Part shown: one piece after another, positions 7,990 to 55,525 of the stretch
Numbering within the stretch: the stretch's first letter is position 1
How the letters are laid out: each line of letters starts with the position of its first letter
IMG/VR virus record: IMGVR_UViG_3300020037_004820
Origin: a virus
Lineage: Duplodnaviria > Caudoviricetes
Length of the DNA: 64,000 bases
Strand: one strand, 5' to 3'
Notes under the pieces: model-generated
The model's input: the letters and a program-made list of their open reading frames with translations, nothing else
What the model was told of the DNA's origin: nothing
The model's database searches: none
Position numbers and translations under genes: made by a program

Positions 7990-9567
7990 TTATTGCTTGT
8001 TATTCGACTTATCAATAATCTCTCTAGCAAAATGCAGAACTTGATCAGACCATCCGCCAAGAATATAAGTTCTGTTATAAAATTCAGGAATGATTGTATC
8101 TTGGTATCCAGCTACTTGAACCAAAAAGACATTAACATTCGGATTAACCGTTTGTCTGTATTTTTGAACAAGTTTCGGAACATCAATATTATTGCCATTC
8201 TGCCAACGGTAATCCTTATATTCAGCGTTGTTCACACCGTATAAGCCCCCATGACCGGCTTGCATATCAGAATATATGAACACGGTGTCCCAATGCTCTT
8301 TTTCCTTGATAGCTTTATCCCAAAACAGCCATATGCCATTTTCAGTGCTTTGTCCAATCTTGTTTCGATCTGCTTCAAATTGCTTGAGCTTATCTAAGAT
8401 AGATTGCTTCTTTCTCACAACTTCTGTGACTAACTTATCCCCAAATCGGCCAATGTGACCTTCCTCAGAAGATAAAGCAGTCAACCATGCTGTTAGATTT
8501 GCAATCTGCGCAACTTCCATTGTTCCCATTGAAGAAGTTGTAGCACCCCAAGCAGAACCACTATTATCGCAAAGCGACATAGTTTTTCCTTCAAACTTAG
8601 GAATGTTTTCGATCGCTTGAAGCAAGCAATCTTCCAGACCATCTAGAACGATAGCTGGAGCATTAGGAACAGCTTTCATAGCACTAAAGTATCTAAAAGG
8701 AAGTTGCTTACCTGTAGCTACTCCTTCCTTTAGCTTATCCATGAACAACTTAGGATCAACTTTATTGTCCAACAGATTTCGAATATTGCGCAAAAGCGCC
8801 ATATGTCCCATTACATTTAGTGCCTCAGTCCAAGACTCTTTATTGGAGCCTTTTGCTGAAATGATAGCTTCCCAGGTTTCTCCTGTTTGAGACAATTCCC
8901 CGCGAACTAGCTTGTTTACAGCATCGCTTTTTGGGTGAACCAAATTTACAACGTCAACCGTCTTTATGGTACGGTTTCGCATTGTATATTTAGCAAGTGA
9001 ATATTCAGATGCCTTTTCAAGAGCATCTTTCCATGCACGCTTTAGAGAATTAGGAATAGCTTTCCTACCAAATCTAGAGATTTGATAAGCCAAACCAACC
9101 GAAGGTTCATCCATTCTTTTTACAATGGACGGAGCATACTGTCTGATTAAAGACGTACCTTTCACTTTAGGATGTTGAGCTGCTCGCACAAGAATAACTT
9201 GAGGAGTTGTACGAATGTTCCACGCATTGCGCAATTCTGCGGCAAGCTTAAGAGTTGCTTCTGGATCATAATCCAAAGCTTTATCAATAGCAGACTCCAT
9301 CAATTCTGATGCGTTGAGTTTATTCCACTCAATAGGCATTAAAGAATCTAAGGTATCATTTAGATGAGTTACAAGAGAGGGAATAACATACTTCGGTGTA
9401 GAAGTTTTCTTCGCCGCTTCACCATCGATATAATATGGTGGCTCTCCAAAAAAGCTAGAAGCAGCCGCCATTTGCAGTGTTGCAATTGGATTCTTTAGAA
9501 ACCAAGAAGAACCATTCATAAAATTCTTATGAGAAGTATCTATAACTTTACGTGTTGTGTTGATCAT
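7990..9567 (-). CDS. rsr: Ro60/TROVE-domain RNA-binding protein with vWA domain
   Basis: HMALLRNIRN, QLPFRYFSA, MIDAS-like CDNSGS, YSDMQ, GGWSDQV; 525 aa. Confidence 0.9.
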   Translation of the reverse strand: MINTTRKVIDTSHKNFMNGSSWFLKNPIATLQMAAASSFFGEPPYYIDGEAAKKTSTPKYVIPSLVTHLNDTLDSLMPIEWNKLNASELMESAIDKALDYDPEATLKLAAELRNAWNIRTTPQVILVRAAQHPKVKGTSLIRQYAPSIVKRMDEPSVGLAYQISRFGRKAIPNSLKRAWKDALEKASEYSLAKYTMRNRTIKTVDVVNLVHPKSDAVNKLVRGELSQTGETWEAIISAKGSNKESWTEALNVMGHMALLRNIRNLLDNKVDPKLFMDKLKEGVATGKQLPFRYFSAMKAVPNAPAIVLDGLEDCLLQAIENIPKFEGKTMSLCDNSGSAWGATTSSMGTMEVAQIANLTAWLTALSSEEGHIGRFGDKLVTEVVRKKQSILDKLKQFEADRNKIGQSTENGIWLFWDKAIKEKEHWDTVFIYSDMQAGHGGLYGVNNAEYKDYRWQNGNNIDVPKLVQKYRQTVNPNVNVFLVQVAGYQDTIIPEFYNRTYILGGWSDQVLHFAREIIDKSNNKQ

Positions 9568-24066: not shown

Positions 24067-24780
24067 ATGAATTTAGAAGAAATGGTCCTGAGTTATCAAA
24101 AAGATTCTAATAAAGAATTGCTTGAAGAAATATTAACAAAATGTAACTCTTTTGTTAAAAGTTTATCTACATATTATTTCCTTAAAAACAGAAAGAATAT
24201 CTTATTAGAAGATTTAAGATCATCTGCTATAGAAGGATTGATAATATCTATTAACAAGTTTAATCAAGATAAAAGTAAAAGTTTTGAACCATATGCTCGA
24301 TTATGGATTTCTGCAAAAATAAGACAATTCTTGCTTAAAAACATAACACCTTTTTCTATAAATGATAAACAAGGCAGACTTAATTTTACGAAATTTTATA
24401 ATTCATCTTCTGACAAAGAATCTAAAGGATATGTATCATTTTTAGATGCATTTAATTTAGCATATCAAGAGCCTGATGAAGAGAGTTATATGTCCAGTTC
24501 TATAACTCCTGAACAGGACCTTTTAAAGAAAGAAGAATTTGCTTTATTCAATAGCGAAGTTGATTCGTTTAAAGAAAAGATAACAGATGTTGAAAACTTT
24601 ATCTTTAGTAAAAGAATTTTATCAGATTCTCCTTTAACTTTAGAAGAAATTTCTAGTAAATTTGATTGTACTAATCAGAATATAGCATATAAAGAAAAGA
24701 AAGTTTTAGATAAATTTAAGAAGCATATTTTGAATTCAAAGTATCGCGAAGTGTTCCAGGCTGGCACGCTCGTTGCATGA
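24067..24780 (+). CDS. RNA polymerase sigma70-family factor
   Basis: Region 2 EDLRSSAIEGLIISINKFN..FEPYARLWI; region 4 HTH TLEEISSKFDCTNQNI. Confidence 0.8.
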   Translation: MNLEEMVLSYQKDSNKELLEEILTKCNSFVKSLSTYYFLKNRKNILLEDLRSSAIEGLIISINKFNQDKSKSFEPYARLWISAKIRQFLLKNITPFSINDKQGRLNFTKFYNSSSDKESKGYVSFLDAFNLAYQEPDEESYMSSSITPEQDLLKKEEFALFNSEVDSFKEKITDVENFIFSKRILSDSPLTLEEISSKFDCTNQNIAYKEKKVLDKFKKHILNSKYREVFQAGTLVA

Positions 24781-24820
24781 CGAAAAAGACGCTTGACGGG
24801 GCGGGTCAAGGGGTTATAGG
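24762..24820 (+). promoter_or_regulatory. Sigma54-like box plus sigma70-like promoter of the ubiquitin-like operon
   Basis: TGGCACG-ctcg-TTGCA (24762-24777); TTGACG-16-TATAGG. Confidence 0.65.
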
Positions 24821-24872
24821 TCGGTGTAGCCGAGTAAGGCGAAAACAGAAAGACAAAGGAAGAGAGGAAAAT

Positions 24873-25067
24873 ATGGCTAATGTTGCAGTGAAGGTTCTCG
24901 GTCGTGATCGTCAGTTCGCCACGGCGAATACCGTTGGTGATTTGAAGACTCAGGTGGGTGTGAATAGCAATTACACCGCTTCGGTCAATGGTTCTCCTGT
25001 CGAGAACGATTTTGCTTTGAGTGACGACGTGTTCGTTACTCTGGCGCCGCCTGTCAAGGGTGGTTGA
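24873..25067 (+). CDS. Ubiquitin-like (beta-grasp, ThiS/MoaD-type) protein with C-terminal GG
   Basis: 64 aa, TVGDLK..ASVNG..LSDDVFVTLAPPVKGG; GAGG RBS. Confidence 0.85.
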   Translation: MANVAVKVLGRDRQFATANTVGDLKTQVGVNSNYTASVNGSPVENDFALSDDVFVTLAPPVKGG

Positions 25068-25085
25068 TTAGTTACTATATGAAAA

Positions 25086-25116
25086 TAGGGCGACTTCGAG
25101 AGGGGTCGCCTTTTTC
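25086..25116 (+). terminator. Hairpin / partial terminator between the Ubl and E2 genes
   Basis: agggcgactt-cgagag-gggtcgcctttttc. Confidence 0.6.
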
Positions 25117-25145
25117 ATTTAACCAGTCCATCCTAAAAGGAAAAT

Positions 25146-26240
25146 ATGTCTAAACAAGAATTGCCCACTTCCCTTAAGATCTATCTTCGTGCCATTCGTA
25201 CTCCCGATAAGCGGAAAGAGTTTCTAGAACTATATCACTATATCCAGCACTTGGCAGGAGATTTTGACGTAACGGTTTCGGAAGCAGACATTCTTGAAAT
25301 GTTCGGAATGGACAATGCTACTTTTCCATCTAAAATTGATATTAACAAGCGGCTATTTAAGCTGGCCCAAACAGACACTGTTAAAAAGGCCGCAGCAGAT
25401 TTTGATATTGCTATTATCAATAGCATGTGTACGAACTATTTCAGTAATGCAGGTAACAAAGAGCAACTACAGCGGTCTATTAGAAATAGCCAAACATCTA
25501 TCAATCGTTGTAACGATGATATTCGCTCTTATGTAACCGCTATCATCGATGCAAAGCGCCAGCTTGTTTCAATGGAAACTAGCGATCATACTGACACTTT
25601 CCTTCGAGAAATCAACAAGATTATTTCTTCTAACAAGTTTGAACAAATTTATTATTACTTGCCGACTCATACTCTTTGTGCAGTTACCAAACCTGTTAAT
25701 ATTCGATATGGCGAAGTCGATTATTCTCTTGGTCAGTATGTAATCGCATTCACTAGCTATGACAAGCGCTTTCATGTTTACCCGCATAAGAATAATATCA
25801 TTGCGGAAGGTGTTGGTCAACGTATTCATCCTCACGTTTTCGAAAGCCGTGAAATTTGCTGGGGAAATGCGAGCGCAACTTATGCGGAATTGATGTCTTC
25901 CCAAAAGATCGGGGAACTATTTCTCATTGCAAATATGATTTTGCATGCATATAATAGGGATTCCCCTGTCAATCCTATCGAAACCTTTAAGAATGACAAA
26001 ACCTGTCCGGTTACGCGAAATACCATACTGTATGTAACGGATTATCCCGTTCATACGCAATTTCTTATTGATCTTTACCCTGAGCTTAAAACGGATAAAT
26101 TGCTTCTGTCAACGTATGTTGCTCGAATCAAGAATGTTCATAACTTCAGTTATAAACTGACGGATGATCCAGTTCAAGAAATCACGCCAGAAGAAAATAT
26201 TGAAAATAATGTGTCCGAAATAATCTCTGAGGTGGCATAA
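25146..26240 (+). CDS. Prokaryotic E2 (UBC-fold)-like protein with N-terminal coiled coil
   Basis: IHPHVFESREICWG resembles the UBC HPN..C active-site motif; operon context. Confidence 0.7.
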   Translation: MSKQELPTSLKIYLRAIRTPDKRKEFLELYHYIQHLAGDFDVTVSEADILEMFGMDNATFPSKIDINKRLFKLAQTDTVKKAAADFDIAIINSMCTNYFSNAGNKEQLQRSIRNSQTSINRCNDDIRSYVTAIIDAKRQLVSMETSDHTDTFLREINKIISSNKFEQIYYYLPTHTLCAVTKPVNIRYGEVDYSLGQYVIAFTSYDKRFHVYPHKNNIIAEGVGQRIHPHVFESREICWGNASATYAELMSSQKIGELFLIANMILHAYNRDSPVNPIETFKNDKTCPVTRNTILYVTDYPVHTQFLIDLYPELKTDKLLLSTYVARIKNVHNFSYKLTDDPVQEITPEENIENNVSEIISEVA

Positions 26241-27169
26241 TGAGTTCCGTTAAAACTGGTCCTTCGACTCCTGTAAAAAATAAGTTTCGTACACCACGTC
26301 TGATTATTCCTCAAGATATTCATCGAAAAATTATGTTTTGGGTAGACGAAGCTAACTTCGAATGCTCATGGTTGGGAACTATTGACCATGATAAAGAAAG
26401 TAACACTTTCTATGTTGTGGATGTATTCCTATTGAAGCAAGAAAATAGTTCAGCTTCTACTGATCTTGACCAAAATGAAATTGCTCGATTGCTCTATGAG
26501 CAGAGAGAAAATCCTTTTGATATCAAGTGGTGGGGACATTCCCACGTTAAGATGGATGTATTTTGGTCAAATACTGACATCGCTACGATGGAAATTCTTA
26601 GCGATGGTGGGTGGTTTATCTCTACGGTGTTCAATCAACACCGTAAAATGAAAACGGCTTTTACACAACTCGATCCTCTTCCTGTTATGATCGATAACAT
26701 CGAAACAACAGTATACGACTTTCTGTCCGAAGCGGAACGTCGCGAATGGAAAGAGGAATTCAATAGTAAAGTTACCAATAAATCTTATTCATATAAATCG
26801 AGTTCGACTACAGCACCTTCCTATTATTCTCAAAATCAAACTCCTGTTGTTGTTCAAACTCCAAAGAATAATATCCCTCCTCCGGCTAATATGCCTGATT
26901 GGAAGCAATATGCAACTGATAAGTGGAAGGAAGGATTACATGCTGCGGAAGCAATTGAAGTAATCAAAGAAGCTAAAAACGTTTATAAATCAGCAGAAGA
27001 AATTATGATGGAAGATGACGCTGGTCCTTTAGATGATATTGGTTTATATATAGCTATGCAGGAGCATGGTAATAGAGAAGAATCAGGAGAGAGAACTCTT
27101 TCTCCACAAGAAGAAGAATTTTTGGCAGAACTTTACGAACAATACGAATTAGCAAGGCAATCAGTATGA
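26240..27169 (+). CDS. JAB/MPN+ metalloprotease (Ubl-processing / deconjugating)
   Basis: N-terminal E (FECSW) and WWGHSHVKMDVFWSNTD = HxH-x7-S-x2-D. Confidence 0.85.
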   Translation: MSSVKTGPSTPVKNKFRTPRLIIPQDIHRKIMFWVDEANFECSWLGTIDHDKESNTFYVVDVFLLKQENSSASTDLDQNEIARLLYEQRENPFDIKWWGHSHVKMDVFWSNTDIATMEILSDGGWFISTVFNQHRKMKTAFTQLDPLPVMIDNIETTVYDFLSEAERREWKEEFNSKVTNKSYSYKSSSTTAPSYYSQNQTPVVVQTPKNNIPPPANMPDWKQYATDKWKEGLHAAEAIEVIKEAKNVYKSAEEIMMEDDAGPLDDIGLYIAMQEHGNREESGERTLSPQEEEFLAELYEQYELARQSV

Positions 27170-27843
27170 TTTCAATCAAAAAAGAACATCTAGTTCGGCA
27201 AGCAGATCTAATTCCTCTTGATGCTTTGAATACTCGTGTTACGATTATCGGAGCAGGAGCAATTGGATCATTTAGTGCTTTTGCTCTGGCAAAAATGGGA
27301 TACAATGATATTCATGTTTTTGATTTTGACGAAGTTAGCGTCGAAAACATGAATGCTCAAATGTATCGTTTTTCAGATATCGGTGGTCAAAAAGTCGAAT
27401 GTTTGAAAGAAATTATCAAAGACTTTGCGAATGTCGATATCGTTGCACATGATTGTAAATATGAAGGTGAAGTTTTTCAAGATATCGTTGTTGCGGCAGT
27501 TGATAACATGGCAACTCGTAAAATGATATACGAGGCGCATCGAGATATGCCATATATCACCAGTTTGTATATTGATCCAAGAATGGCTATTGAATATGCC
27601 TATATTCAGGCTTTTAATCCGAATGATAAAGAGCAGTGCGGTCTATATGAAAAGACCTTGTTTAGCGACGATAACGCTATTCAAGACCGCTGCACCAACA
27701 AATCTACAATATACACGTCTCAACTGATAGGGGCGACCATCGCCAAGATTATCAAAGACATTACTACAAATAAGAGACATATCAATAGAATGATGTGGGA
27801 CATTGCTGGCAACGACGTTATGGAAGTAACGCAGCTCGGCTAA
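27166..27843 (+). CDS. E1-like ThiF/MoeB adenylyltransferase
   Basis: IIGAGAIGS, DFDEVSVENMNAQ, K-VE, AAVDN, DPRM, candidate catalytic Cys in DRCT. Confidence 0.9.
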   Translation: MISIKKEHLVRQADLIPLDALNTRVTIIGAGAIGSFSAFALAKMGYNDIHVFDFDEVSVENMNAQMYRFSDIGGQKVECLKEIIKDFANVDIVAHDCKYEGEVFQDIVVAAVDNMATRKMIYEAHRDMPYITSLYIDPRMAIEYAYIQAFNPNDKEQCGLYEKTLFSDDNAIQDRCTNKSTIYTSQLIGATIAKIIKDITTNKRHINRMMWDIAGNDVMEVTQLG

Positions 27844-27872
27844 AACACAAAATATATATTGAAGTTAAAATC

Positions 27873-27901
27873 AAGGCGGCCATTGGCCGCCTTTTTTTTT
27901 T
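27873..27901 (+). terminator. Intrinsic terminator closing the Ubl operon
   Basis: aaggcggcca-t-tggccgcc followed by a T10 tract. Confidence 0.85.
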
Positions 27902-28944: not shown

Positions 28945-31900
28945 ATGTATAATAATTTGATAATCAATAATATTCAAGAAGCATTTTGGCCAGAAGATAA
29001 AACAAAGTTAAACGGCGCCGCTCCTAAAAAAACAGGAAATCCGCAAAAAGAACCAGAATTATTCGGAAGTGGAGATACGTCAAAAGTAGAAAATGCTTAC
29101 AAAACATATTTTAGAAAATATATTGATGGAGAAGTTACAATTGGAGGAAAACCTTCAAGAAAAACAAATATTACTTTAATAGGTCCTGCTCCTGGTACTC
29201 CAATTGATGAGCAAGAAAAAGCAGAGTTAATTTATAAAGAAGCTGAAGCAATATTAGGCGCATATATTAAAGAAATTTTCGGAGAAGAACAAACACATTT
29301 TAAAGAAGTTTCTAAAAGAGTATCAGATGTAAAAGATTTAGTTAAATCTAAAAATCTTTTACAAAAAGTATATGATAATATATCTAAAAAATTAAGTAAA
29401 TCACAACAAACTAAAGTTGATAAACAAGCTTCATCTATTGTTCATACTGAACCTTCTCATAGAGGAGAATATACTCATTCAACTGAAACTGAAAAAGTTC
29501 CAGCGCCAGGAGATCTTTATGATCAAGAAGGCGCTATTGACCAAGATGTGACAAAAGTTTCAAAACTTGGAAAAGCTGTAAAAAATATTAATGCCCCTTT
29601 AGCAGATGCTGAAAATGCAAATCGTGCAAAAGTTGCAGAAGATAATCGTCCAACAAATCCTTATGTTATATATAATAACAAATCTTCTACAGGTTTTTCT
29701 AGAGTTGTAGTTAGAGCAGATGGTACAGCAATTACTCAAGATGTACCTCAAGCGGAATATTATGCAACAAGTCATATAGGAGTTCCTACCTTAGATGATA
29801 ATAGACTTAATGAAGAACAAGAAAGAATTTCTGTTCAAATAGAAAATTTGACAGCAGAAATAGCGGCTAAATCTCGTGAGAATGATGCTATATCTAAAAT
29901 AGTTGATCCTAAAATTGATCAATATGTTTTACGTGTACTAAATGTTTCTAATGATGGGACATCTTCTTGGCCTAATGCACAAAGAAGACCTCCACAAGCT
30001 AATCCTGCTTCTTCCCCTTTATCATTATATAATCAAGCTATTAAATCGAAAAATCTTGGAGAAGTAAAATCTAATTTTATGGCATTGGAACAAAACGTTG
30101 CTCCAATATTTGCTGATTATTTTGGTTTATCAGAGCTTCATTTGGAAGGTATAGTTGATCAAACTACATCAGAGCCAAAGTTTCCTCAAATTCAATTAAT
30201 GAATTTGATTATATCTAGAGTTATTCAAAAAATTCATTCGGAAGCTAAGAAAAGTGATTTAATCAAAAGAGAGTTATCTTTAATTTCTGCTGGTGAATCT
30301 ACAAAGATAAATGATCCCGCAGCTTTCTATACAACTCCTGGTGGAGAATATAAAGAAAGACTTAATAGAACATTAAAATCTATATCAGAAAATGAAGTAA
30401 TAGCTTTTCAAAAATTGTTTGCAGAAAACAAATATGCTGCAATTGGGCAAGCCTTTTCCAATGCAGAAAGACTTATGTATTCAACTATTCAGAAAAATGT
30501 GAATGCTATAAATGTCTTTTTAAACCAAAACAAAGGATCTGTTTTAGCATATGCTAAATCTTTGCAAGAAAAGATAATAAGATATTCACAAGCTGCTCCT
30601 GTTAATCAATATGAAACAGAATATGAAGATATAGGACTTACAGATGCTTTTGAAAGTCAATCTTCTTTGATTGGTAAAAAATGGAGAGAACGTTTCTCTA
30701 AGATACCCGCAGAAGCAAAACCTTTCTCAGAAATTTCTGCCTTTATAAAGTTAGTGGATTCTAAATTTTCTAATCAAGAAGCTATAGATCAAGAGAATTT
30801 TAAAGTTACAGCTCAAGAAATGTCTTCTACATTTTTTAATCCTGTTTTATTCTTTTTGAGTTTATTAGATAATCCAAATGTATTAAAAAATGATCAAATT
30901 GATGCAACTGAATTAGTACGATCAGATTGGGGCAAAAACCTTAGAGATTATATGGGAGCTCAAAAAATCTCCTATTCAACTCCTAGAGAAGATTTAGCAG
31001 TATTATTAGATATTAACAAATTTATGCGTGATGGTCTAAGTAAAGTAACTGTTGATAATCCTTCTAGTGAGTTAGGTCAAAGATTACAACAAGCTGGGGA
31101 ATCTCAACCATCTCCCGTAAAAAATACTGCTGGTTTACAACTCATGTCTGGAGACAGAGATGTTCTTGTTAATACAAGAGATTTCATTAATAAACTTAAA
31201 ACAGAATTACCAACGAGTTATTCTGCTTTGATATTCTCTGAATTAGGAAGGTTGCGTAAAGAAATATTAGCTAAGAAAGCATCTAAAGAATTTGAAGCAG
31301 CAGCTCAAATATTCAATGGTCCATATTCTAAAGCTAAAGAAGATGTAATTGCCATACTTTCTCCTATATTAAGAGAATTCTTATTTGAAAGATATGCACA
31401 AGATACTAGACTTATTGAAACTGAACATTTGTTTTATGCAATGCTTCGTGAATTCAATAAATTAGTGGAAAATTATGATCCCGACTCTGGACAAGATATT
31501 GAAACTTATCTTTTGTCTGGATTGAAAGATTTTAATCGTTCTAAAGTAGTAAGGGCTATGCATGGTGGATCAGATCGTTTGTGGTATATCCCCCAAGATA
31601 ATGAATCTATTATGGATATTATTCATGCTATATTGGATGCTGCTGAAATCAAAGAAATGCATAAGAAAGAATCTTTTCATAGTGTAAGAGAAATTGCATT
31701 AAAACCTCCAGAGCCAGAATTTAACTCTAATAGTGCTTCTTTAGTTAAGAAACGTTATTTAGAAAAACAAGCTTATGAGGCAGAAAAAGCTCGTTCTATA
31801 AAAAGAGTAGATAAAAGAACAGGTAGAGAAATTTATGAAGTTTTAGATGTTGCAGACAAAGATGTAACATATTATACAATTGAACCTAAAGAATCTATAG

Positions 31901-34900
31901 TTAGAGATCCTGAACAAGCTGCGCAACTTATAGCTAAGTTATGGAGCAGTTTGGAAAAAGTATTTTGGAAAAAATTAGAACGTATTGGATTTTCTCCTAA
32001 AGTTGTATCTTCGTTAGAAGGTGAAGATAAGATGAGCACGCCTAGCGATGAAATTCATTCCAGAGCCTCGGCATTCTATTTCCATCAAATAGAGACGGCT
32101 TTAGGGTCCAAGACAGCAGGCGGTAAAGGTAAAAAGGGTAAAAAGGTCCTAGAGCCTATTGCATCCGACGATAAGGATAAACAAAATCAGCATAGAGCTA
32201 TACCTGCTCAAGAAGCTCAATTGGTTGAAAAAGATAACCAAATTATGGAATTGCTATCTATGGCAGGTCTATTATTTGATTCAATCAATATAGACGAAAC
32301 TGAATTTATGAGCAGAGTTGGTCAAAACATATTTGCGCAATTAGATACTTCTGCAAATATAACAGGTTTGATCAAATCAATTGTAGCATCTATGTTCAGA
32401 AAAGATTGGGGAACTGTACACTCTCTATTATTTAAACCTATTGGTAAAGATGCTAAAAGCGAAGGTCCATGGATAAATGCTAAGCAAATTTCTCCTGAAG
32501 AAAGAGCAGATGTAAAGCCACCATTAATGGTTGTATTAGGTACTATATTAGCCACTTGTATTGATTTAATCCATACTAGTGCTCAAGCTTTTAAAGAAGG
32601 ACAAGGTAAAAAACTGAGTCAATCTGGAATATTTGAAAAATTAGGTGTAGAAGAATTGTACTCAGGATATTCTAGAGTATTAGATTCTTTGAAGGAATTA
32701 TTAAATTGTGCATTCTTACATAGAATTGGACAAGTTCAACCAATGAGAGGTATTCCAAAAGGAAGAGGTGTAACCGCTAAAGGAAGATGGGGAGTGATCG
32801 GTTTCAATGCTGATCAAACTACTTCAATTAGACACCCCTTTACTGTTCGTGGAAAATGGGCAAAAATGGCTAAAGGTTTAGGGCACGAGTTTGCTCAAAA
32901 TCAAGATCCAACTTCTGATACAAGACAACAAGCGATGTTAGCTGCACAAAATGCACAAAATCGTTTCATGTATAAATTACAACAACATTATAAAGGAGAA
33001 GGTGACCCAGTTAATACAACTAATGTATTGAGAACATTAGGAAATTCTATAGAAGGAGAAATTGGTGGAGCATTTAAAGATTTATATCGTTCAAGAAGAT
33101 TTGCAGGGTCTTCTTGGAAAAATAGAGATTTAGACCAATATCATTATAAGATCATAAAGCAGTTGAAATCAGATATAGAACAATTAGGTTATAGACCTGA
33201 TCGTCCTGAATGGTTTGTTCAAAATGAAAACTTACAAGCTAGAGCTGTGGATATAGTATCTGAGGATATCAAAAAACAATTTTTACAAGGAATTGAAACA
33301 GGTAAAACACTTGCGGGTCCAGGTGAAAAAGAAGATGCAACTTCGGGCGTAACTGGTCCATCTAATCCATTACATAGAAGTGGTAAAAATCCTTCATCTA
33401 GATTATTAGGAGATGTTGCACCGGATTCTAAATTGAATCCTAAGCATGATATAGCTTCTAATCAATTTGACTATGAAGCTCCAGTTGAATTAGATATAGA
33501 TCCTGGTTTTGCAGGAAACACCGCAGTGGATAAATTGACTGCGGATCAAAAGAAAGCAGATGCTGAAAAACGTCTACAACAATTTATAGAACTTTATCCG
33601 CAATTCTTAGAAGAAAAGGCTATGATAAACGTTTCTATGTTTGAACCAAAAACTGAGAATCAAACATTAGAAGAAACATTAGAAGGAGCAGCAGCTTCTG
33701 ATGATGTTAATACATTAAATGTAGCAGTTCATGAATTTGATAATGTTTTAGATGATTGTTTTGCAAGAATAAGTCAAAAAGTTGATAAATATAACGACAA
33801 TAAATTCATTAAATCATATAAGAATTTAGATGAAACAGAAACAAAACTTATAAATCAAGATTTAGATAATCTTGATTGGCAAATTACTCAAACTCCTCTT
33901 GAATCTAAAAGACATTTTAAAGCTGCTTTATCTTTGCGACCTGATTCGGACAGAGAACGTGATAAAGCATTTAGAGATATTCTATTTATGAAATATTTTG
34001 AATATGTTTACATAAGAGAAGTTTTGCTAAGTGAAACTATCATGTATTTGATGAATATAGAAAATAGTAGAAAAGGACCTTCGGAGAAGAAAATAGAATC
34101 TATTGCCGAATATATTCAACAATCTAATTTAAATATTAGACATATACCTGGAGTAGAATATAAATTCTATAGAACAGATGACGTTGCACATCGAATAAAG
34201 ATGTCAGATATGCTTAAAGCTATATTTGGAGATGTGGAAAAAGTTCCACAATTCTTAGCAATTGCTGAAGATATTAAAGAATACATTGGGGGAGCTACGG
34301 ACCAAGCGGGAGATACTAAAGAAGATAAAGCAGATAAAGATAGTGCTCAAACTTATGGTATGTCTTCTAAATCAACTGCGCAAACCGATGTTCATGGTGT
34401 AGAAGCAACTAAACAAGGAAAACAAGAAAAAACTAGAGTTAGTGCAATAGATAAACAAATGTTTAATACATTGAATATACAAAATGTATCTAAAATAATG
34501 TCTAAAGTTCTTATGTCTGATGCAGAACCAAATTATGAAGGAGATGTATCTTATGATAAAGTAAGAAGCTACATTAGATCATTAGTTCAAACATATAATG
34601 AACCTATTACCACTAATTCTGCTACAGATAGAATTGTATGGTTTATATCTCATATAAAAGATAACGTCATAAGAATTAGAAACTTTTTACAATCAGCAGC
34701 AAATGCTCAAGCTCTTGTAAAGATGTCTCCGTTTGATAGAAAAGAAATATTTGGAGCAATAGATAATGTTCTACGTTTCTCGACATATCAGGCAAGAAAT
34801 GTTCTGAATCTTAAAAAATCAGTTTATAAGTTGATTCAATTAATGTATAATGCTCCAATTGGAGAAGAAGTTGATTATGATACATTTGATGTTTCATCTG

Positions 34901-35697
34901 CATCTGATAAGCTAAAAGAAGTTACTAAAGCAGTTCAAATAGCAACAAAAACTCCTTATGAATCTTTTGTACCACCATATACAAAAGAATTAGCAACTTC
35001 TCTTCAATCATTTGGTAAAATGATTCAAAGTGGAGCAATAGAAGCACCTGATAAAACTGCTGCATATTTGACAGATAAAGGCGGATTGATACTCACTATT
35101 ATGTCTTATTTGAAGACAAATGGGAAAAAACCTGTTGATGTTTCTGTATTTGATAATCTATCTAATTCTCTTGATCAATTATTAGATCAAATAAAGACAT
35201 TAGCTAAATTGAATGCAGAACCTAAAGCACGTTATAAAGATCCAAATGCAGGAAAAGTATTACCTCAAGATAAAGCAACATCTGCTTCTTCGGGAAAATT
35301 AGGAAGAGCAACTCCTAATCAAAATATTAGTCCAGAAGATCAAGAAATAGTTAAAAAACTTCAAGCTAAAAAATCCGTAACTAAAGAAAGTAGAGATTTT
35401 GAACCTTTTAAAGAAGCTATTGCTGTAGAAAAAATCTTAAAATGCATCAAGATGCAAAGTGGCGGGATACAAAGAGTAAGATATTCAGAATATAGCAAAG
35501 CTAATCCTGGTAAATTGTCTAGAGTTTTATATGAATTATCTAAACAAACTCCAATTGATTTGGATAATTATAGAGTATTCTTGACCGAAGAAAATAAGTC
35601 TAAAGTAAATATAGTATTTGAATATAAGAATGAGAATAGAGGATTATCTCCAGAATATATATGGATTGTTCCAAAAAGTTCTAATTCTTCTAATTAA
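28945..35697 (+). CDS. Giant hypothetical protein, 2250 aa (possible virion or ejected protein)
   Basis: Uninterrupted 6.75-kb ORF, GGAG RBS, ACTATTTATA upstream; no recognisable motif. Confidence 0.75.
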   Translation: MYNNLIINNIQEAFWPEDKTKLNGAAPKKTGNPQKEPELFGSGDTSKVENAYKTYFRKYIDGEVTIGGKPSRKTNITLIGPAPGTPIDEQEKAELIYKEAEAILGAYIKEIFGEEQTHFKEVSKRVSDVKDLVKSKNLLQKVYDNISKKLSKSQQTKVDKQASSIVHTEPSHRGEYTHSTETEKVPAPGDLYDQEGAIDQDVTKVSKLGKAVKNINAPLADAENANRAKVAEDNRPTNPYVIYNNKSSTGFSRVVVRADGTAITQDVPQAEYYATSHIGVPTLDDNRLNEEQERISVQIENLTAEIAAKSRENDAISKIVDPKIDQYVLRVLNVSNDGTSSWPNAQRRPPQANPASSPLSLYNQAIKSKNLGEVKSNFMALEQNVAPIFADYFGLSELHLEGIVDQTTSEPKFPQIQLMNLIISRVIQKIHSEAKKSDLIKRELSLISAGESTKINDPAAFYTTPGGEYKERLNRTLKSISENEVIAFQKLFAENKYAAIGQAFSNAERLMYSTIQKNVNAINVFLNQNKGSVLAYAKSLQEKIIRYSQAAPVNQYETEYEDIGLTDAFESQSSLIGKKWRERFSKIPAEAKPFSEISAFIKLVDSKFSNQEAIDQENFKVTAQEMSSTFFNPVLFFLSLLDNPNVLKNDQIDATELVRSDWGKNLRDYMGAQKISYSTPREDLAVLLDINKFMRDGLSKVTVDNPSSELGQRLQQAGESQPSPVKNTAGLQLMSGDRDVLVNTRDFINKLKTELPTSYSALIFSELGRLRKEILAKKASKEFEAAAQIFNGPYSKAKEDVIAILSPILREFLFERYAQDTRLIETEHLFYAMLREFNKLVENYDPDSGQDIETYLLSGLKDFNRSKVVRAMHGGSDRLWYIPQDNESIMDIIHAILDAAEIKEMHKKESFHSVREIALKPPEPEFNSNSASLVKKRYLEKQAYEAEKARSIKRVDKRTGREIYEVLDVADKDVTYYTIEPKESIVRDPEQAAQLIAKLWSSLEKVFWKKLERIGFSPKVVSSLEGEDKMSTPSDEIHSRASAFYFHQIETALGSKTAGGKGKKGKKVLEPIASDDKDKQNQHRAIPAQEAQLVEKDNQIMELLSMAGLLFDSINIDETEFMSRVGQNIFAQLDTSANITGLIKSIVASMFRKDWGTVHSLLFKPIGKDAKSEGPWINAKQISPEERADVKPPLMVVLGTILATCIDLIHTSAQAFKEGQGKKLSQSGIFEKLGVEELYSGYSRVLDSLKELLNCAFLHRIGQVQPMRGIPKGRGVTAKGRWGVIGFNADQTTSIRHPFTVRGKWAKMAKGLGHEFAQNQDPTSDTRQQAMLAAQNAQNRFMYKLQQHYKGEGDPVNTTNVLRTLGNSIEGEIGGAFKDLYRSRRFAGSSWKNRDLDQYHYKIIKQLKSDIEQLGYRPDRPEWFVQNENLQARAVDIVSEDIKKQFLQGIETGKTLAGPGEKEDATSGVTGPSNPLHRSGKNPSSRLLGDVAPDSKLNPKHDIASNQFDYEAPVELDIDPGFAGNTAVDKLTADQKKADAEKRLQQFIELYPQFLEEKAMINVSMFEPKTENQTLEETLEGAAASDDVNTLNVAVHEFDNVLDDCFARISQKVDKYNDNKFIKSYKNLDETETKLINQDLDNLDWQITQTPLESKRHFKAALSLRPDSDRERDKAFRDILFMKYFEYVYIREVLLSETIMYLMNIENSRKGPSEKKIESIAEYIQQSNLNIRHIPGVEYKFYRTDDVAHRIKMSDMLKAIFGDVEKVPQFLAIAEDIKEYIGGATDQAGDTKEDKADKDSAQTYGMSSKSTAQTDVHGVEATKQGKQEKTRVSAIDKQMFNTLNIQNVSKIMSKVLMSDAEPNYEGDVSYDKVRSYIRSLVQTYNEPITTNSATDRIVWFISHIKDNVIRIRNFLQSAANAQALVKMSPFDRKEIFGAIDNVLRFSTYQARNVLNLKKSVYKLIQLMYNAPIGEEVDYDTFDVSSASDKLKEVTKAVQIATKTPYESFVPPYTKELATSLQSFGKMIQSGAIEAPDKTAAYLTDKGGLILTIMSYLKTNGKKPVDVSVFDNLSNSLDQLLDQIKTLAKLNAEPKARYKDPNAGKVLPQDKATSASSGKLGRATPNQNISPEDQEIVKKLQAKKSVTKESRDFEPFKEAIAVEKILKCIKMQSGGIQRVRYSEYSKANPGKLSRVLYELSKQTPIDLDNYRVFLTEENKSKVNIVFEYKNENRGLSPEYIWIVPKSSNSSN

Positions 35698-37424: not shown

Positions 37425-38039
37425 ATGAAACTTCTAGGAAGAATTCCCAATAAAGTTGCAATTGCATTTTCTGGGGGAATTGATTCTGTTGTTGTTGCGC
37501 ATTTTTTGATGCAATCTAAACGGGAAGTTAGTCTTTTGTACTTTAACCATGGCACTGATCATGGTAATGATGCAGAAGAATTCGTTTTCAAGTTTGCAGA
37601 AGATAATCAAGTAGGCTTGTTGTCGTTTAATATTTCAAATTATCCTCCAAGACCTGATGATTCTTCTCCTGAAGAATGGTGGCGACTCTGTAGATATGAT
37701 TTTTTGGAAGGACATATCGATCCAATTATTACTTGTCATCACTTGGATGACCAAGTTGAAACATGGTTGTTTTCTGCTATGCACAATTATCCTAAACTTA
37801 TTCCTTATCGCAGAAACAACATCATTCGACCATTTCTTCTGACAAAGAAATCTGAAATCCATGCATATGCAGCAAAACATAAGCTGTCATGGATTCAAGA
37901 TGAATCAAATTCCGATGTGAACTATCCTAGAAATAGGATTAGACACAATATAGTCCCCGAAGCGTTGAAGATCAATCCTGGTCTTCATAAAGTAATTGCT
38001 CGTAAAGTAGAAGAGGAATACAATGTCAAAGAAATCTAA
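37425..38039 (+). CDS. tilS: tRNA(Ile)-lysidine synthetase (minimal form)
   Basis: PP-loop SGGIDS, RYDFL, HHLDDQVET, IRPFL, QDESN, RNRIRH. Confidence 0.9.
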   Translation: MKLLGRIPNKVAIAFSGGIDSVVVAHFLMQSKREVSLLYFNHGTDHGNDAEEFVFKFAEDNQVGLLSFNISNYPPRPDDSSPEEWWRLCRYDFLEGHIDPIITCHHLDDQVETWLFSAMHNYPKLIPYRRNNIIRPFLLTKKSEIHAYAAKHKLSWIQDESNSDVNYPRNRIRHNIVPEALKINPGLHKVIARKVEEEYNVKEI

Positions 38040-43231: not shown

Positions 43232-43288
43232 TGCAAGCAGCGTGCCAAAGAAAACGGCCCTTGTCTAGTCGTCCACCGTCGTTATGGT
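43232..43288. promoter_or_regulatory. Reverse-oriented sigma54-like box upstream of a plus-strand sigma70-like promoter
   Basis: Minus: TGGCACG-ctgc-TTGCA. Plus: TTGTCT-16-TATGGT. Confidence 0.6.
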
Positions 43289-50462: not shown

Positions 50463-50622
50463 AATACTAAGGAACCTTCTATGTCAGCAGATAGAGAAGT
50501 AAGTGATGGCCATGAGTGGAACAAGCAGAAACGTACTGATTTCACTATAGCCGAAATTGTTGGAGTTATTATCCTTTTAATAACTGTTATTTGTATTGGT
50601 GTCCTTTAATCAAAGGAGATAT

Positions 50623-51330
50623 ATGACTGTTAAAATATATGAAGTGGGTGGAGCAGTTCGCGATCAATTTCGAGGAGTTAAGTCCAACGATATTGATTTT
50701 GCAGTTGAGGCTTCGTCTTATGAAGAAATGAAAGATTATGTTCTTTTCTCAGGTGCAGCAATTTTTATTGAACATCCTGAATTCGTTACCATTCGCGCAA
50801 AATGGTGTCCTCCTGGCTTAACTAAAGCTGTTCCTTGTGACTTCACATTATGCAGAAAAGAAGGAGAATACCTTGATAATAGGCATCCTTCTTCTTGTGA
50901 ACCTGGCTCAATCATTGAAGATTTAGCGCGCAGAGATTTTACAGTAAATGCTATTGCTAAAGACTGTGTAACTGGTGAATTCATTGATCCTTTTGATGGT
51001 AGAAAGGATATCGAACATCGTATAATTCGTTGTGTTGGAGATCCCAATAAGCGTTTTGTTGAAGACGCTTTGCGTATCATGCGAGCAATTCGCTTTAGCA
51101 TTTGTATGCAATTTGATATTCATTGTACAACGCAGGCAGCACTGTTTAACAATCTTGATCTCTTAGATAAGATTTCCGCAGAACGAATCCTGGCGGAATT
51201 ACATAAGATGTTCAGGTATGATTCTTTGGTGACGCTTAAAGAACTAAGCAAATTCAATAGATATCAATTATCTAAAATGTTCAATGAGCGAACGGGTATT
51301 TGGTTAGAACCTACAATGAGGGAAAAATAA
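50623..51330 (+). CDS. cca: tRNA nucleotidyltransferase (CCA-adding enzyme, class II)
   Basis: VGGAVRD..DIDF, DLARRDFTVNAIA, EDALRIMRAIRF, ISAERI. Confidence 0.9.
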   Translation: MTVKIYEVGGAVRDQFRGVKSNDIDFAVEASSYEEMKDYVLFSGAAIFIEHPEFVTIRAKWCPPGLTKAVPCDFTLCRKEGEYLDNRHPSSCEPGSIIEDLARRDFTVNAIAKDCVTGEFIDPFDGRKDIEHRIIRCVGDPNKRFVEDALRIMRAIRFSICMQFDIHCTTQAALFNNLDLLDKISAERILAELHKMFRYDSLVTLKELSKFNRYQLSKMFNERTGIWLEPTMREK

Positions 51331-54460: not shown

Positions 54461-55525
54461 ATGAAAATTGCAGTTTTAACAAGTGGTGGTGTTGATTCTG
54501 CTTTTGCATTGCATAATTTGCAACGTGAAGGACATGATGTTACAGCTCATTATTTGAAGATCTGGAATCCTCAATATGAACAAGAAGGATCATCTTGTCC
54601 TTGGCAAGAAGATGTCGATAGCGTTAAAGCTATTTGTACGTTATTGAACGTTCCAATGGTGATTCACAATCTCCAGATTGAGTATGAATTTACAGTAATG
54701 GCGTATATGCTTGAGGAATTGAAAGCAGGCAGAACACCTAATCCAGATGTTTACTGCAATCCTTATATCAAATTCGGAGCATTCTTCGATAATATTTCAT
54801 TTAAAGAATATGATTATGTTGCTTCGGGACATTATGCAACAAAGAAGAATATAGAGGATGATCACATTTATTGGCATTCTGGTGATCCTCTTAAGGATCA
54901 ATCATTCTTTCTATCTAAAGTAAAACCTGAACAGTTCAAAAAGATTATCTTTCCTTGTTCGACATTTGGAAAGAAATATATTAGAGCTTATGCAGCGACT
55001 TATAATCTTCCTCAAAAAGATAAGAAAGATTCGCAAGGATTATGCTTCATCGGAAAGGTGAACTATTCAGAATTTATTAGCAAATATATCCCCAATGTCC
55101 CTGGTCCAATTATTGATGTGACAACTTCACAAGTTGTTGGGGAACATAATGGATTACATTTATATACGATTGGTCAAAGGCATGGAATAGAAGTTAGCAA
55201 TGGTCCATGGTATGTATCGTCTAAAAATATAGACAGTAATATATTGTATATTATTAACAGAGTGCATCTTCATCGAACTATGACTGATATAATGCCAATT
55301 ACCAAAGCTAATTGGAATGGTATACCTAAGTATTTCAAATATAAGCATCCACAAGTCAAACTATTGACTGGAAAATATGTAATTAACTCTTCTTTTCATA
55401 ATCCTCAGCAGGATGAAGCTATATTGTTAGATGAGAAAATTTCTTATCTTTCTTTTTCACCTGGACAAGTTGTTGCAGTTTATGACGAAGATCATAAACT
55501 GATAGGAAATTGTGTGGTGAGATGA
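54461..55525 (+). CDS. mnmA: tRNA 2-thiouridylase
   Basis: SGGVDS, TPNPDVYCN..IKFG, SGHYA, KDQSFFL, DSQGLCFIG, TIGQRHG, PGQ. Confidence 0.92.
   Translation: MKIAVLTSGGVDSAFALHNLQREGHDVTAHYLKIWNPQYEQEGSSCPWQEDVDSVKAICTLLNVPMVIHNLQIEYEFTVMAYMLEELKAGRTPNPDVYCNPYIKFGAFFDNISFKEYDYVASGHYATKKNIEDDHIYWHSGDPLKDQSFFLSKVKPEQFKKIIFPCSTFGKKYIRAYAATYNLPQKDKKDSQGLCFIGKVNYSEFISKYIPNVPGPIIDVTTSQVVGEHNGLHLYTIGQRHGIEVSNGPWYVSSKNIDSNILYIINRVHLHRTMTDIMPITKANWNGIPKYFKYKHPQVKLLTGKYVINSSFHNPQQDEAILLDEKISYLSFSPGQVVAVYDEDHKLIGNCVVR

Follow-up and report, generated by a model that had tools for sequence, protein, structure and literature searches.

The 64,000-nucleotide stretch analysed here (the window, numbered from its first letter) belongs to a 221-kb phage contig, IMG/VR record IMGVR_UViG_3300020037_004820, and carries a compact operon of four genes encoding, in order, a ubiquitin-like protein (Ubl), an E2-like conjugating enzyme, a JAB/JAMM metalloprotease and a minimal E1 enzyme (Table 1). 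The source is a jumbo phage, as judged from the length of the contig, the phage-type genes and the tRNAs. That the phage possesses a Ubl-E2-JAB-E1 system of its own had been predicted from the DNA of the window, and the prediction is upheld by a UBC fold with an invariant Cys, an intact JAMM site, a conserved Cys in the E1 and a mostly viral distribution of the family; the four genes, hairpin and terminator that it described are all in place. Taken as a whole, the operon is best explained as a phage-run, reversible, E3-less system of Ubl conjugation that operates in lytic infection for host takeover or counter-defence, and this explanation is considered probable.

Predicted active sites and folds of the four proteins

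Single-sequence scans against Pfam, PHROGs, NCBIfam and PADLOC name neither the E2 nor the JAB protein, and so family alignments were required. A profile built from five close homologues of the E2 retrieved 936 clusters, 150 of which, at roughly 20% identity, were aligned. At a mean column identity of 18%, only G196, C238 and G240 are invariant across the 150 members, and H228 (148/150) and P229 (147/150) are nearly so. H228-P229-H230 is followed by C238, which places the Cys about 10 residues after HP-x, the spacing of UBC enzymes; the Asn of HPN in canonical E2s is mostly His or Tyr in the family, and no conserved His follows C238 in the 150 sequences. Pfam UQ_con matches 33 of the 150 members (9.8e-7 at best), and the family profile aligns HP(H)V..ICWG and YNPxSP with HPNI..IC and NPDDP of the UBE2D/Ubc4 active-site region.

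A first model of the E2, made from 6 sequences, was poor (predicted local distance difference test, pLDDT, of 57), but an AlphaFold2 model based on the 150-sequence alignment reached a mean pLDDT of 89.9 and divides the protein into an N-terminal helical domain (residues 1-80), a helix or coiled coil of 45 residues (101-145), the UBC domain and a variable tail. Comparison of the UBC domain with 48,161 solved chains gave Z scores of 8.0-8.8, root-mean-square deviations of 3.5-4.4 and 121-130 aligned residues; E2 enzymes fill the top five places and 12 of the top 13, and Foldseek also ranks E2s first, with weak E-values. The UBC fold had been set beforehand as the point on which the prediction could fall: residues 147-288 of the 364-residue protein model as a UBC domain, and Cys238 is invariant. 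The coiled coil that had been proposed appears in the model as the long helix, and in close relatives it is the most variable folded part of the protein, with 28-40% identity as against 61-64% for the UBC domain. The UBC assignment stands because sequence motif, profile and fold agree, though each score is middling.

In a marine viral subfamily, the E2 slot holds a diverged gene with an invariant Cys (60/60) that aligns with the E2 family over the catalytic stretch (HHalign probability 94.9, E-value 4e-8). The protein of this slot (L054, 11195-12493; about 60 marine viral loci) carries a C-terminal four-Cys cluster, possibly a zinc finger fused to the E2. At two loci a second E2-like gene follows the E1 gene (L008, 4371-5321; L104, 4771-5943); the L104 copy has HP..C, and the L008 copy, in which a pattern search found no HP..C, is possibly an inactive paralogue.

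The E1 is a single adenylation domain (Pfam ThiF, 5.8e-22, 78.5 bits) with the motifs GAGAIG and DRC176T. G29, G31, G34, D53, N61, K76, D113 and C176 are invariant in 119 homologues, R11 is near-invariant, and the elements of an adenylation domain (GxGxxG, Asp, Lys, Mg-binding Asp and N-terminal Arg) are all present. The Cys occurs in 110 of the 111 neighbours of viral JAB genes and CxxC in only 5 of the 111, suggesting that this Cys does not belong to the usual zinc site; the phage E1 itself has no CxxC zinc site. Like C187 of MoeB, Cys176 precedes the IG of the C-terminal helix by 12-13 residues.

The JAB protein has a full JAMM site, E41 and H100-x-H102-x7-S110-x2-D113, in which all five residues are invariant; the Glu, which lies outside the motif used for selecting loci, is present in 134 of 134 sequences. 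The catalytic domain covers about residues 20-180, and the protein has an acidic low-complexity tail. The best solved relatives of the JAB profile are an archaeal-type Rpn11-like protein (6fjv, 2.5e-10), Rpn11 and CSN5, and Prok-JAB matches 13 of 17 members. At locus L026 (3979-5584), a likely group I intron (preceded by T and ending in G) with a LAGLIDADG gene interrupts the JAB gene inside the HxH motif. A search of Rfam gave no match for this intron; elements of this type tend to occupy conserved, needed genes. At L066 and L076, JAB and E1 are short fragments under translation table 11, as expected of a reassigned stop codon, and these look like the product of another genetic code, not of introns.

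The Ubl is a predicted beta-grasp protein by sequence only (Pfam ThiS, 25.4 bits against a cut-off of 22.5) with lysines at positions 7, 25 and 62; its Atlas neighbours are ThiS/SAMP2 at 0.86-0.88, which is a lead only, and its identity in close relatives is 81-89%. A 96-residue open reading frame (ORF) at 24777-25067 was rejected as the Ubl gene, being an upstream extension of the frame, and relatives and the ribosome-binding site indicate the ATG at 24873. In this phage the Ubl is encoded mature, with the stop codon directly after GG. Of 66 distinct C-termini of family Ubls, GG is the very end in 16 and is followed by 1-3 residues in 33, and 5 end in GA or GN, so that JAB would be required as a maturase in many members. 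In the clade of this phage, where the Ubl is born mature, JAB is still 72-80% conserved among close relatives, which points to removal of tags.

Several points weigh against a conjugation system of this kind. The E2 fold scores are middling (Z 8-8.8; Foldseek E-value 0.017 at best). Cys176 is a candidate rather than an assigned catalytic residue, since its equivalence to C187 rests on helix register while aligners pair it with C172 or C175 of MoeB, which are zinc cysteines. The E1 lacks the Arg of the NxxRQ ATP-binding motif (LQRQ in MoeB, MNAQ here), so adenylation must use other residues; R11, R118, R139 and R175 are other conserved arginines. No conserved neighbour pointing to a target was found among the cassette loci. 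A complex prediction with the E1 dimer and the E2 domain gave no answer (score 0.02) and was not used as evidence.

Two other chemistries were weighed. In the first, the Ubl would be a sulfur carrier, its thiocarboxylate being used to thiolate tRNA or to make a cofactor, with the E2-like protein as a relay or scaffold. The Ubl is indeed ThiS/SAMP-like, the window holds 27 tRNAs, MnmA and a TilS domain, and the crAss-like E1 is labelled 'thiamine biosynthesis protein' in public records; however, sulfur relays use no E2 (PMC10557695) and no thiolase travels with the cassette, so that a relay is highly improbable and the presence of an E2 favours conjugation. None of the ORFs that surround the cassette at the viral loci has a PP-loop thiolase motif, the product of the ATP_bind_3 gene resembles TilS, lacks CxxC and is not TtuA, the E1 has no rhodanese domain and scores far below the equivalog cut-offs of ThiF (78 against 159) and MoeB (42 against 266), and the invariant Cys of the E2 fits no known relay. 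MnmA uses a persulfide relay, which also counts against a sulfur carrier. In the second, the E1 and E2 would hand the Ubl to a lipid, a nucleic acid or a small molecule in place of a protein (as with Atg7/Atg3 and Atg8), or the kit would be a decoy draining a host Ubl pathway or the Cap2/Cap3 pathway of CBASS, the antiphage signalling system based on cyclic oligonucleotides. UBA5 and Cap2 are among the E1 profile matches, a homodimer-type E1 without UFD or CYS domain resembles non-canonical E1s, there is no E3 and JAB members match CBASS Cap3-type models weakly, but both variants are quite improbable, as the E2 is of the canonical HP-x...C type, not the Atg3/Cap2 type, and a decoy would have no need of a full set of four co-inherited parts that includes a tag of its own. 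Conjugation of the Ubl to protein is highly likely on sequence and model grounds.

A mostly viral family and its possible targets

With 936 E2 clusters the family is a large one, and most of it is viral. Close relatives keep the order sigma-Ubl-E2-JAB-E1, and the four-gene order, for which a synteny check had been proposed, is shared by three close relatives and numerous more distant viral contigs, indicating that the operon is not a product of chance. A scan for the E2 motif in DNA found 16 viral contigs, all 16 of them family members, in which JAB and E1 follow wherever the flank allows. The JAB motif occurs on at least 120 viral contigs; where the flank suffices, E1 follows JAB in 100 of 101 loci and a Ubl lies upstream in 68 of 80, and the gene between Ubl and JAB is a phage-type E2 or a diverged gene with an invariant Cys. 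Atlas neighbours of the E2 and of JAB are unnamed, mostly viral clusters. Three loci have another order, with E1 before JAB (L053, L099 and L147); L053 and L099 are contigs of about 87 kb with short E1 matches.

Among 50,697 records of phage isolates, 72 gave a tblastn match to the E1, all of them from Flavobacterium or crAss-like phages, with JAB and a His/Cys protein upstream; tblastn with the E2 and JAB of the phage gave zero matches. The crAss-like Ubl-slot gene (L001, 1559-2428; L002, 1246-1923; L003, 1227-2153) has KSGG or KSGA/RSGA near residue 85-95 followed by a long extension, which in L003 contains a ribosomal L7/L12 C-terminal domain (5e-12).

In 185,579 prokaryotic genomes the E2-motif scan gave 26 hits, with the cassette on 2 contigs; as the scan detects 90 of the 150 family members, absence from bacteria is relative. 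One of the two, L026, lies among small phage-like ORFs and its E1 is nested among viral E1s. The other, L036 (2-7998 of a 9-kb contig of a bacterial metagenome-assembled genome, MAG), has a phage-type cassette beside DUF499 and DUF1156 genes, a setting that suggests possible use in a bacterial defence island. This copy, together with a gene order as in BilABCD (PMC10557695), allows for a weapon like the bacterial Bil system, with which a resident phage would tag structural proteins of co-infecting phages. Such a weapon is improbable: no Bil model is among the matches listed for the E2 or JAB families (the best 25 from the PADLOC 2023 library), the architectures of E1 and E2 are unlike those of Bil, and a good anti-phage system should spread in bacterial genomes, from which this one is nearly absent.

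From the genes, predicted folds, conserved catalytic residues, co-inheritance and viral distribution described above, the following steps, with their timing and targets, are proposed. Host RNA polymerase would transcribe the operon early, and most transcripts would end or be trimmed at the post-Ubl hairpin, so that the tag exceeds the enzymes. A homodimeric minimal E1 would adenylate the C-terminal glycine of the Ubl, hold it as a thioester on Cys176 and hand it to Cys238 of the E2, which would attach it to target lysines with no separate E3; the N-terminal helical domain, coiled coil or tail of the E2 may find the partners. JAB would trim the pre-tag in relatives whose Ubl carries extra residues and, in a phage with an already mature Ubl, would strip tags and recycle the Ubl. 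The purpose would be the tagging of host proteins for host takeover or counter-defence.

It is likely that the kit is used in the lytic cycle of the phage itself, whereas the case for host proteins as its main targets, whether for takeover or counter-defence, amounts to somewhat less than an even chance. Action on the host is favoured by the early-type promoters, the GC-rich Ubl codons and the patchy presence of the kit among phages; action on phage proteins is favoured by placement in replication modules. In the marine clade the cassette lies beside primase-helicase, AAA_24 and single-stranded DNA-binding protein-like genes, in crAss-like phages between primase and uracil-DNA glycosylase, and in this phage next to a sigma factor. 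The same chemistry could therefore serve SUMO-like tagging of the phage's own replication, recombination or transcription proteins, for which a core-like block kept across very distant phages, unlike patchy anti-defence genes, and a deconjugase suited to cyclic regulation would be fitting. However, the neighbours vary by clade, no single phage protein travels with the cassette, and most phage isolates lack the kit, as the tblastn count of E1 shows, so self-regulation of this kind is unlikely.

A wider claim, that unrelated tailed phages (jumbo, marine and crAss-like gut phages) own an old, virus-centred Ubl conjugation system and use it offensively to disable host proteins, is doubtful. If true, offensive tagging by phages would mirror bacterial Bil defence and would add to kinases and ADP-ribosyltransferases a third way for phages to modify proteins, and the viral reservoir would be relevant to the origin of the ubiquitin system. 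In the literature searched, complete prokaryotic E1-E2-Ubl pathways belong to hosts, and the tested ones act against phages; a family of hundreds that is kept mainly by phages reverses this host-defence picture and implies an unknown phage function. That a ThiS-like tag and a minimal E1 occur together with an E2 of canonical type and an Rpn11-like JAB also bears on the idea that conjugation arose from a sulfur relay. The four proteins are small and soluble-looking and have single predicted catalytic residues, which makes the chemistry testable in E. coli, and cultured carriers of the distant version (Bacteroides crAss-like and Flavobacterium Fpv phages), whose E1 is now mis-annotated as a thiamine gene, let targets be sought in real infections. 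As an E3-less orthogonal tagging kit, the system is a possible tool.

Transcription signals and genome setting

The coordinates of the operon and its signals are collected in Table 1. The E2 and JAB ORFs overlap by 1 nucleotide and the JAB and E1 ORFs by 4, which suggests translational coupling. The GC content is 38% for the whole cassette, 51% for the Ubl gene and 27-32% for the flanking genes. The cassette comprises the first rightward genes at a turn in GC skew, behind the phage sigma factor, which holds the equivalent position in L004-L006 and L171; this placement, with the replication-gene neighbours seen elsewhere, is consistent with an early or replication role.

Table 1. Position of the operon, its active sites and its signals in the window
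Feature	Position	Strand	Description
Sigma70-family factor gene	24070-24780	+	Directly upstream of the cassette; TIGR02937 above cut-off; phrog_351, 6.9e-15
Sigma54-type -24/-12 box	24761-24777	+	Candidate, from sequence alone; 0 mismatches to YTGGCACG-N4-TTGCW
Sigma70-like promoter	24793-24819	+	Predicted; TTGAC-N17-TATAG, GC-rich spacer
Leader hairpin	24829-24840	+	3-bp, then GAAA; 93% of cells paired in 5 phages
Ubl	24873-25067	+	64 residues; ThiS/SAMP-like beta-grasp; ends PVKGG-stop
Hairpin between Ubl and E2	25087-25117 (stem 25087-25112)	+	GC-rich, with U run; z = -3.4, 0/200 shuffles fold as well
E2	25146-26240	+	364 residues; HPHV..ICWG motif
UBC domain of E2	25584-26009 (residues 147-288)	+	AlphaFold2 model
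Catalytic Cys238 of E2 (predicted)	25857-25859	+	Invariant in 150 homologues
JAB/JAMM metalloprotease	26240-27169	+	309 residues
E1	27166-27843	+	225 residues; ThiF/MoeB fold, minimal, stand-alone
Candidate catalytic Cys176 of E1	27691-27693	+	Invariant in 119 homologues
Intrinsic terminator	27873-27901 (stem 27873-27893)	+	9-bp stem and 10 T; z = -3.7

The original prediction had placed a promoter ahead of the Ubl gene, and this stands except that two candidate sites, not one, were found. The sigma54-type box overlaps the last codons of the sigma-factor gene and is retained in 3 of 4 relatives, having been lost in L007. At the sigma70-like site, both boxes and their spacing are conserved in 4 relatives, while the spacer sequence varies; the window has 5 exact and 15 one-mismatch sites of the TTGAC-N17-TATAG class, as compared with an expectation of 6.25, and no shuffle scores as high. 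As a class, these sigma70-like promoters of the phage have a fixed spacer and a -10 box without its last T. Sigma54-type boxes recur in the window at 24761, 36225 and 39209 (+) and at 43232 and 62649 (-), in GC-rich islands, and three of these boxes immediately precede a TTGAC -35 box; at 2 mismatches there are 8 matches, where 2.3 are expected.

The hairpin between Ubl and E2 is a candidate leaky terminator or mRNA-stabilising stem. Close relatives have a hairpin of other stem sequences at this position (z = -3.2, -4.9 and -5.2), and about 38% of the wider family has one; a structure kept while its sequence changes would be compatible with an excess of Ubl over the enzymes. An equivalent of the terminator, a stem with a T run, follows E1 in L004-L006. 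The leader hairpin shows 1 compensatory change in 5 phages and its covariation is not significant; this, and its being unique in the window, led to its rejection as an antitermination boxB.

The window also encodes DNA and RNA ligases and a polynucleotide kinase, and an Rfam search of it returned tRNAs only. A tRNA maturation kit accompanies the 27 tRNAs, comprising MnmA (54461-55525, above the TIGR00420 cut-off), a stand-alone TilS catalytic domain (37425-38039) and a tRNA nucleotidyltransferase (50596-51330), and a Ro60/TROVE-like RNA-binding protein (7990-9567; phrog_850, 4e-42) lies inside the tRNA cluster. Close relatives share with this phage a gene (28945-35697), lying two genes downstream of the operon, for a 2250-residue protein with no family match. 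Pieces of the stretch are matched, at 99% or more, by contigs from wastewater and from a metagenome without a label, and no RNA run is among the sequencing runs listed as containing it.

Comparison with known systems

Iyer et al. (2006) listed Ubl and JAB proteins of phages for tail assembly alone, with neither E1 nor E2 (PMC1779556), and a search of the literature (subscription papers not covered) together with the 2021 jumbo-phage review of Iyer gave no description of phage-borne kits. The closest resemblances are to cellular systems and to a phage locus under another name.

The PRTRC group, 6d in the classification of Iyer et al., resembles the phage kit in having separate genes for Ubl, E2-like protein, JAB and small E1 on mobile DNA (PMC1779556), and its Prok-E2_D is a weak structural neighbour of the phage E2. 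The 6d E2 differs in lacking the classical upstream His and having a His after the Cys, and 6d includes an extra helical protein (PMC1779556). PRTRC models A, B and C gave no hits to the other three phage proteins, and the PRTRC ThiF model scores 42.9 on the E1 against a cut-off of 144.75. CBASS shares E1, E2 and JAB chemistry through Cap2 and Cap3, with weak profile hits of the phage E1 and JAB. Cap2 is an E2-E1 fusion that conjugates CD-NTase, whereas the phage has separate genes, a free Ubl and no cyclase or effector, and the neighbours of its cassette are the sigma factor and an unknown protein. Bub is likewise a bacterial Ubl, E1, E2 and JAB conjugation pathway but employs oxyesters of Tyr (E1) and Ser (E2) and BubE (PMC11601596), whereas the phage enzymes keep Cys and no such gene is present.

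A separate bacterial operon accounts for four further hits among prokaryotic genomes (L030, L039, L044 and L045; MAGs of Blastocatellia, Thermomicrobiales and other Chloroflexota). It has the order Ubl-E2-JAB-E1 and an HPH..ICWG motif in the E2 but differs in its short E2 (about 185 residues) without coiled coil and in its 380-residue zinc-binding E1, which forms a separate clade (100/98). Curated families gave no match to the Ubl or E2 of the L039-type operon, which looks undescribed; at L039 (3291-6837), as at the other three loci, its flanks encode several proteins that have a zinc ribbon at the N terminus. Among phages, the 'ThiF' locus of crAss-like viruses (Flavobacterium Fpv3, Steigviridae) has the order possible Ubl fusion, His/Cys protein, JAB and E1, the last being 30-33% identical to the phage E1 with the same Cys, and in BFVD the model of the phage E2 is matched by a crAss-like protein (probability 0.98, E-value 0.1). 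Public annotation differs in naming only a thiamine biosynthesis protein and a metalloprotease. Profile probabilities against the phage family are 2% for the E2 and 14% for the Ubl, and because this homology is weak, both links are only leads.

The ubiquitin system of Caldiarchaeum subterraneum (Ub, E1, E2, RING E3 and Rpn11; PMC5654768) also has a canonical-type E2, and the JAB profile of the phage family finds its best solved match in an archaeal-type Rpn11-like protein. Rpn11 is the maturase of Caldiarchaeum pro-ubiquitin (PMC5654768), and trimming of a pro-tag by a JAMM protease that exposes GG is predicted for most phage relatives too. The phage kit is distinguished by the lack of a RING E3, a ThiS-like tag, a minimal E1, long extensions of the E2 and its carriage by a phage. 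Bil (BilABCD, types I and II), a bacterial anti-phage ubiquitination system, shares with the kit the order Ubl-E2-JAB-E1, a Cys-type E1 and E2, a JAMM peptidase and the absence of an E3 (PMC10557695). However, the Bil E1, BilD, is built of several domains (IAD-AAD-CYS) and has a zinc site whereas the phage E1 is a zinc-free single domain of 225 residues, in BilB a conserved His follows the Cys whereas the His of the phage E2 precedes it, BilA is ubiquitin-like whereas the phage Ubl is ThiS/SAMP-like, and Bil is bacterial whereas the phage family is mostly viral. As Bil requires an IAD-AAD-CYS E1, the phage kit falls outside it. Judged by its predicted proteins, the kit would work like Bil or the archaeal ubiquitin system and is a member of neither; its novelty lies in its ownership by phages and its wide spread.

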